Below are positions 9,163 to 37,583 of a stretch of DNA of 40,771 nucleotides, in pieces; the first letter of the stretch is position 1, and the number at the start of each line of letters is the position of its first letter. A model generated the notes under the pieces. It was not told where the DNA came from. It made no database searches and worked only from the letters and a program-made list of their open reading frames with translations. Source of the DNA: a virus (lineage: Duplodnaviria; Caudoviricetes); the IMG/VR virus record IMGVR_UViG_3300049135_000080, positions 1 to 40,771 of that record, one strand, 5' to 3'. Position numbers and translations under genes: made by a program.

Positions 9163-10944
9163 GTGGACAACGTCCGCCCCCTGCCGCGCGACCAGGCGGA
9201 CCACGACGGCCTCAACATGCGCGCCCCCCACGACGCCGAGGCCGAACAACTGGTCATCGGCGCCGTCATGCACGACGCGAACGCCTACCAGGCCTGCGCC
9301 GCCATCATCGACCGCGGCGACTTCTACGTCCCCGCCCACCGGCTCCTGTGGGACACCGTCGCCGGGCTCGTCGCCGCCGGCACACCACCACACCCCGTCC
9401 TCGTCCGCGCCGAGATCGAAAAGCAGGGCAGGCTCCGCGAAGTCGACGGCGGCCAGCTCATCATCCGCCTCGGCTCCGACTACCTGCCAGCCGCCAGCGC
9501 CCCCCACTTCGCCGAGCAGATCTACGAGACCGCCCGGCAGCGCCGCTACGACCAGCACGCCAACGAACTCAAGGCCGCCATCCTCCGCGGCACCGACGGC
9601 GACGAACTCGAAGCGCTCGTCCACCAGTTCAACCAGGGCGAGCAGCTCCGCGAAACCACCGGCCGCGGCCCCGCCCACCTCGTCGCCGCGCTCCTCAACT
9701 GGGGCACCTTCTTCGCCACCGACTTCGGCGCCATCCAGCTCCTGCCCGGCAAGCTCATGGGCCCCGGCCAGCAGATCACCGTCGTCGGCGACGGCAAGGC
9801 CGGCAAGTCCCTGTTCGTGCAGGAGTGGGCCTGGCGCATGGCCACCGGCCAGTCGTTCCTCGGGGACAAGCCGCAGGACCCGGTGCGGATCCTGTACTTG
9901 GACGCCGAGAACGGGCAGGAGCAGGTCCAAGAGCGGTTCCTGTCGTTCGGTGCCGGACCGCTGTCCATGGGCGAGCTGCGGTACGCCTCGTTCCCGCCCG
10001 TGCGCCCCCTCGACACCGCGGGCGGCGGCGCGGACCTGATCGCCCTCGCCAAGGCCACCGACGCCGAGTTGGTCGTCATCGACACCGTCTCCCGGTTCAT
10101 CTCCGGCCCCGAGAACGACGCCGACACCTGGCTGGGCCTCTACCGGCACACCCTCCTGCCCCTCAAGCGCGACCGCATCGCCTCCATCCGCCTCGACCAC
10201 TTCGGCAAGGACAAGGAACGCGGCGGCCGCGGCTCGTCCGCCAAGACCCAGGACGTCGACCACGTCTGGGAGCTCGCCGCACAGGGCGGCGGTGCCCTCA
10301 CCCTCAAGCGCACCCACACCCGCACCGGCATCGGCCCCGACCACTTCAGCCTCCTGCGCCAGGCCCGCCGCGACGGCGACAACTGGGCTATCGGCGGCAC
10401 CCGCCACGTCGTCATGACGTACGAGCAGGAGGCCACCGGACTTGCCGCCGTCCCCGGCACCGTCGAGCACATCATCGCCACCCTCGACGCTGCTGGCCTG
10501 CCCAACGACGCCGGCAACCGCGTCGCCCGCCAGGCCCTCGCGGACCGCCAGGTCCCCGGCGGCAGCGACAAGATCGCCGAGGCTGTCCGACGCCGCAAAG
10601 CCCGCCCGATTCAGCCCGGTATCGACGTTTCCGGAAACCGTTCCGGAGACCCCTCCCAAACACCGTTCCCGGAAACGTTTCCCGGAACGCACCCCGGAAC
10701 GGGCGAAACCGCAGGTCAAACGTTTCCCGGAAACGTCGCGGAACACCCCGGAACGCCCCCCGTTCCCCACGTTCCCCCCTCGAAGAGGGGGAACGGGGAG
10801 GGAACACGCGGAACAGCAGGCACCGAAAAGCCCCTCTGCACCGTCTGCCACGGCCCCCTTGCACCCGAACTCACCGCACAGGGATACGCCACCCACATCG
10901 GCTGCGACCCCACCACCGGCAGCCACCCCGACACCGCCGCATAA
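9163..10944 (+). CDS. Replication protein: DnaB N-terminal domain + RecA/AAA_25-type helicase + C-terminal zinc knuckle
   Basis: PHDAEAEQLVIGAV...DFYVPAHRLLW (DnaB-N), Walker A GDGKAGKS, Walker B LVVID, H...K...RGSSA, C-terminal CTVC...HIGC. AGGAG before GTG 9163. Confidence 0.85.
   Translation: MDNVRPLPRDQADHDGLNMRAPHDAEAEQLVIGAVMHDANAYQACAAIIDRGDFYVPAHRLLWDTVAGLVAAGTPPHPVLVRAEIEKQGRLREVDGGQLIIRLGSDYLPAASAPHFAEQIYETARQRRYDQHANELKAAILRGTDGDELEALVHQFNQGEQLRETTGRGPAHLVAALLNWGTFFATDFGAIQLLPGKLMGPGQQITVVGDGKAGKSLFVQEWAWRMATGQSFLGDKPQDPVRILYLDAENGQEQVQERFLSFGAGPLSMGELRYASFPPVRPLDTAGGGADLIALAKATDAELVVIDTVSRFISGPENDADTWLGLYRHTLLPLKRDRIASIRLDHFGKDKERGGRGSSAKTQDVDHVWELAAQGGGALTLKRTHTRTGIGPDHFSLLRQARRDGDNWAIGGTRHVVMTYEQEATGLAAVPGTVEHIIATLDAAGLPNDAGNRVARQALADRQVPGGSDKIAEAVRRRKARPIQPGIDVSGNRSGDPSQTPFPETFPGTHPGTGETAGQTFPGNVAEHPGTPPVPHVPPSKRGNGEGTRGTAGTEKPLCTVCHGPLAPELTAQGYATHIGCDPTTGSHPDTAA
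10627..10814. repeat. Iteron-like GGAA(A)C/GTT(T)CC cluster, putative replication origin
   Basis: Palindrome GTTTCCGGAAAC (10627-38), AAACGTTTCCCGGAA x2 (10673, 10718), CACCCCGGAACG x2 (10690, 10744), GTTCCCCC...GGGGGAAC (10771-94). Confidence 0.65.
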
Positions 10945-12489: not shown

Positions 12490-12671
12490 CCGGCCCTTCG
12501 TCCACCCCGCGCGGCGAACACCCCGGCCGGCCCGGCACCACATGGGAGACCCGCCTCGTCGTCGTCGAGACCGTCATCCCCGACGACGCAGACGACGACG
12601 CCCCGACGACGCCCCCACCGAACCGCGCCACCCGCCGCGCCCTCGCCAGAAGGAAGCCCCGCCGTGCCTGA
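12486..12671 (+). CDS. Hypothetical protein
   Basis: Coupled on both sides. NRATRRA basic end. Confidence 0.55.
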   Translation: MTGPSSTPRGEHPGRPGTTWETRLVVVETVIPDDADDDAPTTPPPNRATRRALARRKPRRA

Positions 12672-13437
12672 CCACTACGCCAAACTCACCCGCGCCGTCG
12701 TCGAGATCGGGACGCAGCTCCGACGCCTCGCCGACGCCAACACGACGCCCGTCGGCACCTGCGACACCTCCCTCGCCGAAGGCATCGCTGGTCCGCTCGG
12801 CCCGTGCATCCTGCGCTTCGAGCACGACGGGCCCGTCCACCAGGACGCCGACGGCCGACGCTGGTCGACGGCCGTCTCCGACGCCCCGACGACGACGCCC
12901 TACGACGACCCGCGTTGCGTCTGTGGCGACCCCATCGTCCTCAGTGGTGACCCGGCCCGCTGGATCCACGGTCCTGGAGCGGGCACGCCCGCCCTCGACG
13001 CCCACACTGTTCGGCCCGTCCCGGCCGCTGACCATGCCCCGTACCTGCTCCGCGTCCTCGCCGACCGTGCGGCGCGCGGTGCTCTCTCCCTGCCTGGGGA
13101 AGGTGAGGCCCTGCGCCGCCGAGTCGAGCAGGCCATCGACCGCGGCGACCAGCTGCGTGCCCAGCGGGACCAGGTCGAGGAGCTCCTCCGCGTAGCGCAC
13201 GAGACGTCCAACCGGTCGGAAGCCGAACGCGCCCGCGCGGTGCAGCGGGCCGAGCGGGCCGAGGAGCAGCGCGACCAGCTGCGCGTCACCCTCGACGAGG
13301 TGCTCCGCCACTTCGTACGCAAGGGCCACCCAGGCGCGCCGTGCCTCGAGTCCGGATGGGTCCACGAGGACACCGTCGCCCGGTGGCGCGCCGTCCTCCA
13401 CCCGCCGGCCGCCGAGGAGCAGTCCTCCCAGCGCTAG
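12664..13437 (+). CDS. Hypothetical coiled-coil protein
   Basis: AAGGAAG RBS, coiled-coil C-terminal half. Last gene of the early operon. Confidence 0.65.
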   Translation: MPDHYAKLTRAVVEIGTQLRRLADANTTPVGTCDTSLAEGIAGPLGPCILRFEHDGPVHQDADGRRWSTAVSDAPTTTPYDDPRCVCGDPIVLSGDPARWIHGPGAGTPALDAHTVRPVPAADHAPYLLRVLADRAARGALSLPGEGEALRRRVEQAIDRGDQLRAQRDQVEELLRVAHETSNRSEAERARAVQRAERAEEQRDQLRVTLDEVLRHFVRKGHPGAPCLESGWVHEDTVARWRAVLHPPAAEEQSSQR

Positions 13438-13751: not shown

Positions 13752-14027
13752 TCAGCTCATGCCCTTCCAAATCCGCCACGCCCGCGACCGATCCACCCCG
13801 ATCGCCTCACCAATCTCCGGGAAATCCATCCCACCCCGATACAGCGTGTCGACCGCGGCCTGCCGGATCGCCGCCGGCAACCCCTGCTCCGCCTTCCACT
13901 CCCGCAGCACCAGGCCAGCCGCCCGCGCCCGGACAGCCGCATCGGGGATCGCCTCCAGTTGGCGCAGCGCAGCGCGTACCGCCTCCAGTGCCCGGTCCGC
14001 TGCCGCGCGTGCCTCGTCTTCTGCCAC
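13752..14027 (-). CDS. Small HTH regulator (Kor-like position)
   Basis: GGGAGG RBS before GTG 14027. C-terminal HTH MDFPEIGEAIGVDRSRAWRI. Confidence 0.8.
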   Translation of the reverse strand: MAEDEARAAADRALEAVRAALRQLEAIPDAAVRARAAGLVLREWKAEQGLPAAIRQAAVDTLYRGGMDFPEIGEAIGVDRSRAWRIWKGMS

Positions 14028-14070
14028 GGTCCACCTCCCGCCCGGAGCGTAGGTCTGCACACAGCGTCCC

Positions 14071-14108
14071 GTGTCGGGTACCCTCAACGCGTGTCGGGTA
14101 TCCGACAC
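14071..14108. promoter_or_regulatory. Tandem operator GTGTCGGGTA x2
   Basis: Direct repeats 20 bp apart. The second copy forms the palindrome GTGTCGG-GTAT-CCGACAC. Lies between the divergent HTH and DUF2637-like genes. Confidence 0.65.
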
Positions 14109-14214
14109 CGCGTCACGACGGGCCCGACGGCCCCGACGACGCCCCACAACTGAACGACCCCCGCAGGCGCTGCGAACGCCGAACGGGGGTCTGACCACAG
14201 GAGCGTGCACTCCC

Positions 14215-15066
14215 ATGGCTGACCAGCAGCCTACCCGCGCCCGCCGTATTAGCGCCCCCATCCGCATCGCCTGGGCCCTCGTCCTCGTCATGATGCTCGC
14301 CGCGGCCGCATGGTCCATCAGCGGCAAGCTCATCGCCTGGGGCATGACCCCGAAACTCGCCTGGGCCCTCAGCTTGATGTTCGACCTGGCCGGCCTGATC
14401 TGCGCCGAGTACGCCCGCCGCGCCATCGAGCGCGGCTCCCCCGCCGGTCTGGCCCGGCTGGCGATCTTTGGGTTCGTCGTCGTGTCCGGCGCCCTGAACT
14501 TCGACCACGGCCGCGAGATCGGCGGAACAGTCGCCGGGTGCGGCCTCGCCTCGATTTCCGCTGCCGTGGAGCTGCTGTTCGAGCTGCACCGCCGCGACAT
14601 TCGCGACGAGCAGCGCTCCGCCCGTGGCCTCATCGCCGAGCGCCTGCCGCACATCCCGCTGTTGGGCTGGGTGATGTACCCGGTCCGGTCGTTCCTCACG
14701 CTGCGCGGTGCGGTCGGTGCGCGGCTCGACGTGCTGGACCCGGTGCAGCGCCCGGTGCCGACGCCCGTCGTCGAGCGCGTCGCCCCGCCGTCGGTCCCGG
14801 TCCCGCCCGTCACGCCGAAGGCCCCGGCCCCCGAGCTCCCGCCCGCGCCGATCGCCTACCGCGACCCCCGGTGCGCCGTGATCCGCCCCCTCTACGACCT
14901 CGGCACCCGGCCCGGCACCGTCGCCATGCGGGAAGCGCTCCTCGAAACCGGCCACGGCCGCGTCGCCGACTCCACCATCCGCGGCGTCCTCCGCAAGGAA
15001 GTCGAGGAGCACGAGCCGCACCTCGCGCAGCTGCCGCCCTTGATCGGCATGGGGATGAGCGGCTGA
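14215..15066 (+). CDS. DUF2637/SpdB-like multi-pass membrane protein
   Basis: About four TM helices with W...FD and S...N..H motifs, Pro-rich linker, small C-terminal domain. AGGAG RBS. Confidence 0.7.
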   Translation: MADQQPTRARRISAPIRIAWALVLVMMLAAAAWSISGKLIAWGMTPKLAWALSLMFDLAGLICAEYARRAIERGSPAGLARLAIFGFVVVSGALNFDHGREIGGTVAGCGLASISAAVELLFELHRRDIRDEQRSARGLIAERLPHIPLLGWVMYPVRSFLTLRGAVGARLDVLDPVQRPVPTPVVERVAPPSVPVPPVTPKAPAPELPPAPIAYRDPRCAVIRPLYDLGTRPGTVAMREALLETGHGRVADSTIRGVLRKEVEEHEPHLAQLPPLIGMGMSG

Positions 15067-15206
15067 TGTGGCCCGTGTTCGTGCTCGCCATGGTCGGCGG
15101 GTTCTGTGGCCTGACCCTCATCTCCTGGCGCGAAGTGCCGCTCCACGTCGGCACCGCCGCGCTCGTCCTGACCCTCGCCGCGCTCGGCGTGGCCATCCTC
15201 CACTGA
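15066..15206 (+). CDS. Small 2-TM membrane protein
   Basis: TGATG coupling. MWPVFVLAMVGG...LAALGVAILH. Confidence 0.7.
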   Translation: MWPVFVLAMVGGFCGLTLISWREVPLHVGTAALVLTLAALGVAILH

Positions 15207-15214
15207 GGACCCCC

Positions 15215-15727
15215 GTGAACATCACCACGTACAACGTGCTCTCCCTCGGCGGCGTCACCGTCGGCCTGTCCATCCTCGGCTGGGTCATCACCCAGTGGTG
15301 GATGAGCAACAAGAAGAAGAACCTGAAGGCGTTCCTGAAGCTGGTCCCCTTCCTGCTCTGCGCCTCCTACGGCATGGTCCTCGTCCTCTCGGCCGGCGGT
15401 CTCCTCGGCGCCGGGGCCGACTGGACCATGTGGGGCACCAGCGAGATCGGGAACGCTGCCCTCCAGTACGGCGTGGGCGGCGGCACGCCAGCCGTCACTC
15501 GCGGCTCGAACCTCGTCCTGTCCGACGGCGGGCATGCGGTCGTCATCATCGCCACCGTCTGTCTCATCGCCGCGTGGACGTTGCGCCGCGGCTTCCGGTG
15601 GGACCTGTTTGCTGCGGTTGTCTGCGGCATCAGCTTGGGCCTGTCGTCCGGCATCGCGGGCGCTGCGGGGTACGTCCTCTCTCCGGTCGTGTCCGGCGCT
15701 GGTGACGCTGTGGTGGGTCTGCTGTGA
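15215..15727 (+). CDS. Multi-pass Gly-rich membrane protein
   Basis: GAGG RBS, about 4 hydrophobic segments, GxxxG motifs. Confidence 0.75.
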   Translation: MNITTYNVLSLGGVTVGLSILGWVITQWWMSNKKKNLKAFLKLVPFLLCASYGMVLVLSAGGLLGAGADWTMWGTSEIGNAALQYGVGGGTPAVTRGSNLVLSDGGHAVVIIATVCLIAAWTLRRGFRWDLFAAVVCGISLGLSSGIAGAAGYVLSPVVSGAGDAVVGLL

Positions 15728-16098
15728 AGGCGCGGATCGTGGCCGTGTGGGGGCGGCTGTGCCTCGGCACCGGACTGATGTTCAACCGGCTGGAGGACGC
15801 GCTCGACGCGTCGTCCGGGTGGGGCCTGCTGGGCCGGATCGGTGGCGGGGTCGGTGGGGTGTGGCTCCTCGATGGGGTCGTGTCTCGTCAACCGGCGCTG
15901 GTGTACGGGCTGCCGGTCGTGTGGCTGTTCGCGGCGTGGCGGGTGTCCGATTCGTCCGCCACTCCCCCACCGAGAGGGGTTGCCGCCCGATCGGACGTTG
16001 ATGCAGATCAGGCGCGTAAAGCGGCGAGAGTGGCTACGGACCCGAACGGGGTTATGTGCATCCTCCATCCGGTTGGGGAGGAGGTGACTGAGCGATGA
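15724..16098 (+). CDS. Membrane protein
   Basis: GTGA overlap. Hydrophobic segments ending in WLFAAWR. Confidence 0.65.
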   Translation: MKARIVAVWGRLCLGTGLMFNRLEDALDASSGWGLLGRIGGGVGGVWLLDGVVSRQPALVYGLPVVWLFAAWRVSDSSATPPPRGVAARSDVDADQARKAARVATDPNGVMCILHPVGEEVTER

Positions 16099-16190
16099 TG
16101 CTGCGTCTCCTCTCCGCCCTGCGGATCGAGTTCCCGCCGCTGCCGTACTGCGCCCGCTGCGGCGGCCACTACCCGCCCCACAGCCACTGA
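16095..16190 (+). CDS. 31-aa CxxC peptide
   Basis: GGAGG RBS, ATGA overlap. MMLRLLSALRIEFPPLPYCARCGGHYPPHSH. Confidence 0.5.
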   Translation: MMLRLLSALRIEFPPLPYCARCGGHYPPHSH

Positions 16191-36818: not shown

Positions 36819-37583
36819 TCAGTCCTCGGGCTGGTCAATCCCGATCTCGTAAGCGATCTCCCACCGAACATCCGCGACCGTGATGTCCGCCGTCTCCACC
36901 GGCCGGCCGCCGCGGTCGTAGTACGTCCGCTCAATCTCGGTGATCAGGTCACCGACGCTGATGCCGAGCAGGTTCGCCTGCTCCTGGGTGGCGCGGGCAG
37001 GGCGCGGCACCTCGACGGCCGTCTCGATCAGGACCCCGATGGACCGCATTCGCTCCACGACACCGGCGCCCGCGTACGGGCCCATCTCGGGCAGCACGAC
37101 CGGCGTATCGCCGGTGATGGCCATCGGCTCCCACGACTCGGAGAGTTGCACGGGCAGGCCGTCCGCCAGGAACTCGTACCGGGTGCGGACGCACAGGTCA
37201 CCGGGATCGATCGCGAGCCGCTCCGCGATGTGCTCCGGCGCCGGGGTACGCGCTTCGCTGCGGGACTCCCAAGTGCCCGCCTTGCCGCGCTCTTTCATGT
37301 CGGCACGGAACGGGCTGCCGCCGCGACGCTCACGGTGGCGGGAGCGAACCATCCGCATCCGTTCGCGCGGCCGGCGTACGTAGGTGCCGGATCCGGCGCG
37401 GCCCTCGAGGAGGCCCTCGACGATGAGCCGCTCCATGGCGCGCTGCGCGACGGACTGGCCGACGCCGTACTCCTCGGCGAAGCGGGCGCGGGACGGCAGC
37501 TTGTCGCCGACCTGCCATTCACCTGCCTCGATGCGGGCACGCAGAGCGTCGGCCACCTGAAGGTAAGGCGTTTCGCGTGGCAT
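36819..37583 (-). CDS. GntR/HutC-family regulator with UTRA domain
   Basis: PYLQVADALR...LPS...GVG...AM..L..EG....GSGTYV, then UTRA. GGAG before ATG 37583. Confidence 0.92.
   Translation of the reverse strand: MPRETPYLQVADALRARIEAGEWQVGDKLPSRARFAEEYGVGQSVAQRAMERLIVEGLLEGRAGSGTYVRRPRERMRMVRSRHRERRGGSPFRADMKERGKAGTWESRSEARTPAPEHIAERLAIDPGDLCVRTRYEFLADGLPVQLSESWEPMAITGDTPVVLPEMGPYAGAGVVERMRSIGVLIETAVEVPRPARATQEQANLLGISVGDLITEIERTYYDRGGRPVETADITVADVRWEIAYEIGIDQPED

Follow-up and report, generated by a model that had tools for sequence, protein, structure and literature searches.

A membrane-gene cassette of temperate Streptomyces phages as a probable motor-less descendant of plasmid TraB transfer operons

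A cassette of four coupled membrane genes (g1 to g4) found in temperate Streptomyces phages probably derives from the transfer operon carried by TraB plasmids of Streptomyces, domesticated by the phages and without its motor. The new element is the origin to which sequence comparison points: relatives of g3 lie directly before traB on plasmids, g4 stands in the place of traB, and the ATPase is absent; by parsimony, the cassette would have passed from plasmid to phage. The original prediction had interpreted the cassette of a 40.8-kb soil phage as a plasmid-spread (spd)-like membrane operon with its own divergent repressor. Of that interpretation, the conserved unit, the repressor-operator pair and the tra/spd origin are supported; direct Spd homology and a GntR-type Kor are not, and the use of a borrowed TraB is weakened. 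Overall, the cassette appears to work like a remnant tra/spd membrane operon. No description of a motor-less cassette in Streptomyces phages was found in the open-licence literature, judged by titles and the beginnings of abstracts.

These results bear on how phages move inside a multicellular bacterium. The marker gene g3 is present in about one in six sampled Streptomyces genomes, mostly in prophages, and on large plasmids it also emerges as a neighbour of TraB that had escaped notice. The series from full TraB through motor-less g4 with a repeat array to short g4 with neither winged helix nor array offers a natural dissection of pump-less Spd-type proteins, and several unnamed families receive a first assignment. 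Since three cultured phages carry the cassette, a deletion test is within reach.

The phage, its cassette and the repressor

The stretch of DNA analyzed (hereafter the window) is IMG/VR record IMGVR_UViG_3300049135_000080, 40,771 bases in length, with a completeness rating of 100% and no end repeats. It encodes a tyrosine integrase, helicase, terminase, portal, capsid, tape measure and endolysin, and represents a complete temperate tailed phage. The cassette is located at the end of the early genes, approximately 2 kb upstream of the terminase, and the best matches of this region among cultured phages are the Streptomyces phages OnionKnight and Kromp. Elsewhere in the window, CGACG is enriched within two small genes (12500-12950, 14-15 copies per 250 nt), and five TGCAA words by the repressor/excisionase region (1000-1400) are candidate immunity operators. 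A 31-aa gene with a CxxC..H motif (16095-16190) is coupled to g4 and retained in close relatives, and a lipoprotein gene conserved in the phage group (17309-17764), in the interval between cassette and terminase, is itself a candidate exclusion protein.

All five predicted genes and the operator are present. On the plus strand, g1 (14215-15066, 283 aa) and g2 (15066-15206, 46 aa) overlap by 1 nt, g2 and g3 (15215-15727, 170 aa) are separated by 8 nt, and g3 and g4 (15724-16098, 124 aa) overlap by 4 nt, in agreement with the tight coupling claimed for the four genes. Small hydrophobic genes coupled in a transfer-operon layout, as expected of an spd operon, are thus found. The product of g1 contains a DUF2637 domain with three hydrophobic segments (PF10935, E 4e-6, 27.2 bits versus a cut-off of 22.8), followed by a Pro-rich linker and a small helical C-terminal domain; this last part, which gave no match in a PDB search, is a putative DNA binder. 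No word array was found within g1 of the 40.8-kb phage. In one clade of relatives, the g1 linker carries GGACA/CGGAC arrays (loci L002, L021, L026, L032, L041 and L050-L052), and a GGACA array was observed in 8 of the 10 g1 loci scored. As predicted, g2 is a two-TM peptide with two hydrophobic segments and g3 is a Gly-rich (15.8% Gly) four-TM protein with four; in other phages, the counterpart of g2 is a larger membrane protein of the Kromp gp83 type. g4 occupies the position of traB and is a short allele of a protein built from a TM hairpin and a winged helix, the latter missing here. A hydropathy scan of its 124 residues gave no 19-residue window above 1.6, so its label as a TM protein holds through the family alignment and not through the phage's own sequence. 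An NCBIfam search of the cassette yielded nothing useful.

The divergent gene (13752-14027, minus strand) encodes a small HTH protein of 91 aa, a probable repressor and one of three alleles in the phage group, with weak HTH matches only (Pfam HTH_23, E 0.05; phrog_686, E 5e-4) and no match to GntR. Its kor-like character lies in a divergent candidate repressor with an allele-matched operator, not in membership of the GntR-type Kor proteins. A GntR-UTRA regulator resembling plasmid KorA/TraR is encoded elsewhere in the window (36819-37550, minus strand; match to pIJ101 KorA, E 3e-20), near the integrase and 21 kb from the cassette, and is possibly a second piece from a conjugative element. In the HTH/g1 intergenic region, the predicted tandem operator corresponds to a 14-nt direct repeat, which is better read as one palindrome plus an upstream half site (14071-14108). 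The palindrome, GTGTCGG-N4-CCGACAC, is perfect (14091-14108), and its 7-4-7 pattern has no other match in the genome when up to 2 mismatches are allowed. The half site at 14071 overlaps a candidate rightward promoter (TGCACA-17 nt-TACCCT, 14056-14084, plus strand), identified by eye against a Streptomyces consensus; a sigma-70 scan of the region found nothing. The overlap with this promoter-like site is what makes the HTH protein a probable repressor. Among the listed loci that have both parts, each of three HTH alleles goes with its own palindrome (GTGTCGG, GTGATGG or CCAAGGG type) in 14 of 14 cases, although these loci are related and amount to three groups rather than 14 events. This is good evidence that HTH allele and palindrome form a cognate repressor-operator pair, and the claim that the cassette has its own repressor is upheld at the sequence level. 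An adjacent divergent HTH gene occurs in 15 of 71 loci and is specific to this phage group, while one lies within 3.6 kb in 35 of 69. The leader contains a conserved hairpin (14156-14191, plus strand) with compensatory stem changes; it was found in 28 loci, duplicates included, and matched no family in an Rfam search.

Distribution and origin of the cassette

The synteny survey supports the view of the cassette as a unit. A g3 profile matched 50 of 301 sampled Streptomyces genomes, with intact reading frames in 51 of 51 matches. By reading of the loci, a terminase lies within 15 kb of g3 in 34 of the 50; nine others are phage- or satellite-like without a terminase in the fetched stretch, two have g3 before a TraB-like gene, one resembles the TraB-linked pair at a contig edge, and four were left unclassified. 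TraB-linked copies are undercounted in this survey because four later finds had been missed by the g3 profile search. Among 84 distinct non-TraB loci, several of which are near-copies from one soil series, 56 of 71 have g1 on the upstream side and 65 of 71 have either g2 or a gene of the gp83 type, while g4 follows in 71 of 83; the position of the cassette is fixed in unrelated phage types. It is also present in the cultured phages VWB (gp24-gp26; order DUF2637, gp83-type, g3, g4), Kromp (gp82-85) and OnionKnight (gp56-60), where the annotations go no further than hypothetical protein, membrane protein or DNA-binding protein. The cassette may also extend to satellites, as four satellite-like elements (L090, L091, L095 and L102) carry g2 and g3 alongside genes for a capsid and for a primase, regulator or integrase, and no terminase in the fetched stretch. 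DUF2637 relatives with approximately 30% identity occur in about 90 records of 120-135 kb lytic Streptomyces phages and the satellites MiniFlayer and Mulchroom, none of which had g3 matches.

The 1.84-billion search returned 142 g3 relatives, nearly all of about 170 aa or fragments, and the Atlas search returned unnamed actinobacterial clusters only. Single-sequence g3 searches of plasmids and phages gave no match and were evidently too weak, since profiles later found g3 in both. For the predicted g3 fold (pLDDT 76.6), Foldseek found nothing in the PDB at E 0.001, and the best PDB alignment (Z 5.3, rmsd 4.3, 99 aligned) was not counted as a match.

Estimates of dN/dS, by simple count, are about 0.3 for g1, 0.1-0.24 for g3, 0.15 for short g4 (three close relatives) and 0.46-0.56 for two more distant g4 genes, with few changes available for g2 and for close g4 pairs. 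These values indicate that the cassette genes are under purifying selection and have kept a function. Alleles are exchanged freely among close phages. Exchange at each of the four genes is nearly independent of the others (Spearman 0.09-0.35), a looser association than an obligate complex would lead one to expect, and the cassette of the 40.8-kb phage is itself a mosaic, with g1-g2 resembling one set of relatives and g3-g4 another.

As predicted, no TraB/FtsK is encoded in the 40.8-kb genome, in which two different families (PF01580 and phrog_12531) gave no match. A TraB motor was likewise absent from all five whole related genomes and, by a custom motor profile that matched all TraB controls, from the 84 loci (68 of them at least 10 kb long). 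Since the ATPase, the winged helix and a clt array are all missing from the 40.8-kb phage, it falls outside the TraB conjugation systems. Plasmid-phages such as pZL12 similarly combine virion and conjugation-operon genes, but are reported to keep the pump that is absent from the 40.8-kb phage and its five related genomes (PMC3583192).

Evidence for an origin in tra/spd operons comes from g3 and g4. One TraB subfamily has 23 chromosomal loci, and in 6 of them a g3 relative is directly upstream of TraB (an FtsK-like gene matching phrog_12531 at E 1e-55 or better), and a profile built from phage g3 alone matches these elements at E 1e-28 to 2e-5; the other 17 TraB genes of the subfamily have no g3 in front. 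On plasmids, g3 stands directly before the pump gene in all five records opened (NZ_CP107888.1, NZ_CP129916.1, CP108176.1, NZ_CP134606.1 and NZ_CP108311.1; E 2e-36 to 2e-6), which are the top matches of 39 with such a TraB and not a random sample. The linear plasmid NZ_CP107888.1 has the order GntR / DUF2637, 180-aa gene, g3, TraB, that is, the VWB/Kromp layout with TraB replacing g4. Unlike the phage cassette, the five plasmid operons encode a full TraB of 680-780 aa, lack the 46-aa g2 and have a GntR regulator where one was seen; a DUF2637 gene lies upstream in NZ_CP107888.1, and a repeat element follows the stop codon in three of the five. A third small family, 'ESAS', is common to the phage and g3-TraB operons (three elements, E 2e-15 to 5e-10). 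A candidate match between the gp83-type gene and the gene before g3 in TraB elements was borderline (probability 31, E 5e-4) and was not counted.

The position of g4 in phages is that of traB in plasmids, and g4 is likely a remnant of traB itself that had been overlooked in the first reading. Most g4 alleles are about 200 aa long, with a membrane hairpin followed by three predicted helices and a wing. This winged helix is present in 60 of 83 loci, is kept in VWB and Kromp, and is absent from 11 of the 83, among them the 40.8-kb phage, in which the hairpin joins the tail directly. In a profile comparison, it matched the C-termini of TraB (probability 95.8, E 7e-9, score 49), against control scores of 14 for the reversed profile, 9.8 for the best of 30 shuffles and 11.5 for GntR. 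The match weakened to E 1e-5 when one TraB, that of locus L180, was left out, and to a probability of 45 and E 2e-4 with the 11 g3-adjacent TraBs alone; no match was obtained to TraB of pIJ101, pJV1 or pSN22, and the membrane part at the N-terminus of g4 is not homologous to the corresponding end of TraB (E 0.54). A helicase origin of the winged helix was also tried and rejected (E 0.011 with two sequences; E at least 0.08 with four larger control sets). The predicted fold of a long g4 allele (pLDDT 87) gave weak winged-helix-type PDB alignments (best Z 6.4, rmsd 3.7, 80 aligned), and the sole strong match of such an allele was VWB. The intact TraB of L180 (2353-4926) has an N-terminal FtsK-gamma domain and a phage-g4-like C-terminal winged helix, with a TrwC relaxase on the same contig. 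Its winged helix is the closest to that of phage g4 (E 1e-6), is accompanied by a TCTAC-type array like that of one phage clade, and sits on a long branch among phage sequences in a tree that gives no direction (98 columns, 31 of 85 forks open). No longer fused g4 form was found among 7991 candidates, a weak test because L180 was found later.

In TraB, a winged helix at the C-terminus recognizes the clt repeats, which may overlap the end of a tra gene (PMC3583192). In the phages, 38 of 60 g4 winged helices have a 5-mer array behind them (p<1e-5) versus 0 of 60 control stretches, and the array word tracks the winged-helix clade, of TCTAC or CAAC type, among the matches listed. A motif, GCAGGTCA/TGACCTGC, lies 3' of 41 of the 60 g4 winged helices and of 20 of 28 traB stops, where a private 5-mer array accompanies it. 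It was selected after the sequences had been viewed, recurs at the 3' ends of helicase genes (8 of 45 P-loop genes) and is missing in pJV1, and is therefore supporting rather than defining. The 40.8-kb phage retains a one-base variant, GCAGATCA (16003-16010, plus strand), of the motif that anchors the array in relatives, with no repeat array at 15.9-16.3 kb (best 5-mer log10 p -2.4 to -3.5); short-allele g4 loci have an array in 0 of 11 cases. Separately, GGAAC/GAAAC words in both orientations surround GCAGGTCA (10711) at the 3' end of the DnaB/AAA_25 helicase gene (10627-10814), an array with a layout like clt-like elements and likely the replication origin.

The relationship to Spd proteins themselves is more distant. 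Neither a profile of phage g1 alone (E 0.3) nor Pfam DUF2637 matched the SpdB-type proteins of pIJ101, pJV1 and pSN22. When the profile was broadened to 118 DUF2637 domains from phages and AICEs, it matched the N-terminal TM domain in SpdB of pIJ101 and in the product of the second gene downstream of traB in pJV1 and pSN22 (17-24 bits, compared with 7.7 for the best of 300 shuffles); these pJV1 and pSN22 genes are annotated as hypothetical and are presumably spdB2. As only the broadened profile reaches the SpdB proteins, g1 is a distant relative at best. pSAM2-like elements have a 224-aa DUF2637 gene right after traB, which we take to be SpdA. No match was found between g2-g4 and the Spd proteins of pIJ101, pJV1 and pSN22, and candidate homology of the cassette to pIJ101 SpdA, KilB, orf66, orf56 or an 80-aa protein, the last assumed here to be KorB, was rejected. 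In operon organization, the likeness is closer: the traR-spdB3-spd79-spdB2-traB operon of pSVH1 has a divergent repressor, intergenic repeats and translationally coupled membrane genes, with traB at the end where g4 ends the cassette, whereas the cassette belongs to a phage, lacks the ATPase and has a 91-aa HTH protein instead of GntR (PMC4447253).

Possible functions

In order of probability, the candidate functions are spread of phage DNA, interference or exclusion, membrane tethering, use of a borrowed pump, lysis or toxicity, and decay. The foremost, held tentatively and at somewhat less than even probability, is that g1-g4 form a membrane complex helping replicating phage DNA to spread along hyphae and between compartments without a pump of its own. 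As the HTH protein would repress the operon, the complex would appear as a burst once the phage has entered a cell lacking that repressor allele, as in kor-controlled plasmid operons; with a private repressor and switching operator alleles, the burst could occur even in a cell holding a related prophage, a logic supported by the allele-operator matches. g1-g4 would then assemble in the membrane, where in most relatives g4 may tie phage DNA to the complex via its own array, while in the 40.8-kb phage only g1 could do so, and DNA might pass passively through an SpdB2-like pore. SpdB2 of pSVH1 is a DNA-binding oligomer that forms pores, and spread requires spdB3, spd79 and spdB2, in a complex with TraB (PMC4447253); reviews of AICEs describe kor repression and cross-wall spread (PMC2440964, PMC9513070). 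Motor-independent spread is placed first because every version of the cassette keeps the membrane part, SpdB2 forms pores and the entry burst fits. Against it, no motor is present, whereas spreading of pSVH1 involves TraB itself (PMC4447253); moreover, the N-terminal part of g4 is unlike TraB, and the adjacent repressor occurs in only 15 of 71 loci. A stronger form, in which a large class of temperate Streptomyces phages would have remade conjugation machinery as a motor-less cell-to-cell conduit that lets genomes cross hyphal cross-walls without lysis or virions, is rather unlikely, as is the analogy by which such a conduit, its burst set by an allele-specific repressor, would be comparable to the movement proteins of plant viruses.

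The absence of the winged helix in 11 of 83 loci indicates that DNA tethering by g4 is dispensable, which counts against the spread explanation and would suit interference or exclusion, whereby a motor-less decoy would jam the TraB machines of rival plasmids or keep the DNA of other phages from entering a lysogen or infected hypha. A motor-less pump subunit could act as a natural dominant negative, alleles are swapped freely as with conflict genes, g2-g3 occur in satellite-like elements, and Streptomyces genomes contain 4-16 FtsK-family matches each. This explanation is nonetheless on the unlikely side, considering that a dedicated repressor would suit a transient function better than steady protection, that most relatives retain a matched winged helix and array needless for a decoy, and that the N-termini of g4 and TraB differ.

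Two membrane proteins with small helical C-terminal domains, together with arrays inside their own genes (GGACA in g1, and those of g4) and the lytic phage and satellite DUF2637 relatives without g3, might instead suggest a tether in which phage DNA is anchored by g1 and g4 to the membrane or the tip of the hypha for replication or segregation, with no passage of the wall. We consider this improbable, as it leaves g2 and g3 unexplained and the 40.8-kb phage has an array in neither g1 nor g4. About equally improbable is a borrowed pump, in which accessory proteins and a loading site were kept and either host FtsK or the TraB encoded by a resident plasmid or AICE does the moving. The persistence of a clt-like element in most relatives and the likeness of the L180 TraB, in winged helix and array, to one phage clade would fit; however, the array words follow the phages' own winged-helix clade, making g4 a likelier reader than a foreign pump, and short-allele loci have no array. 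With winged helix and array lost in the 40.8-kb phage, the predicted borrowing of a resident TraB is weakened and unlikely here.

A role in aiding lysis, or as a toxic membrane module of the kil/kor or holin kind, would agree with small coupled membrane proteins and with the toxicity of SpdB3 and the admission of lysozyme by SpdB2 in E. coli (PMC4447253), but is very unlikely, as the endolysin region is separate (near 34.3-36.1 kb) and the cassette closes the early genes, ahead of the terminase. Least probable by far is a decaying passenger without function, which the stepwise loss of motor, winged helix and array might suggest and against which stand purifying selection, a fixed position in unrelated phage types and the uniformly intact g3 frames.
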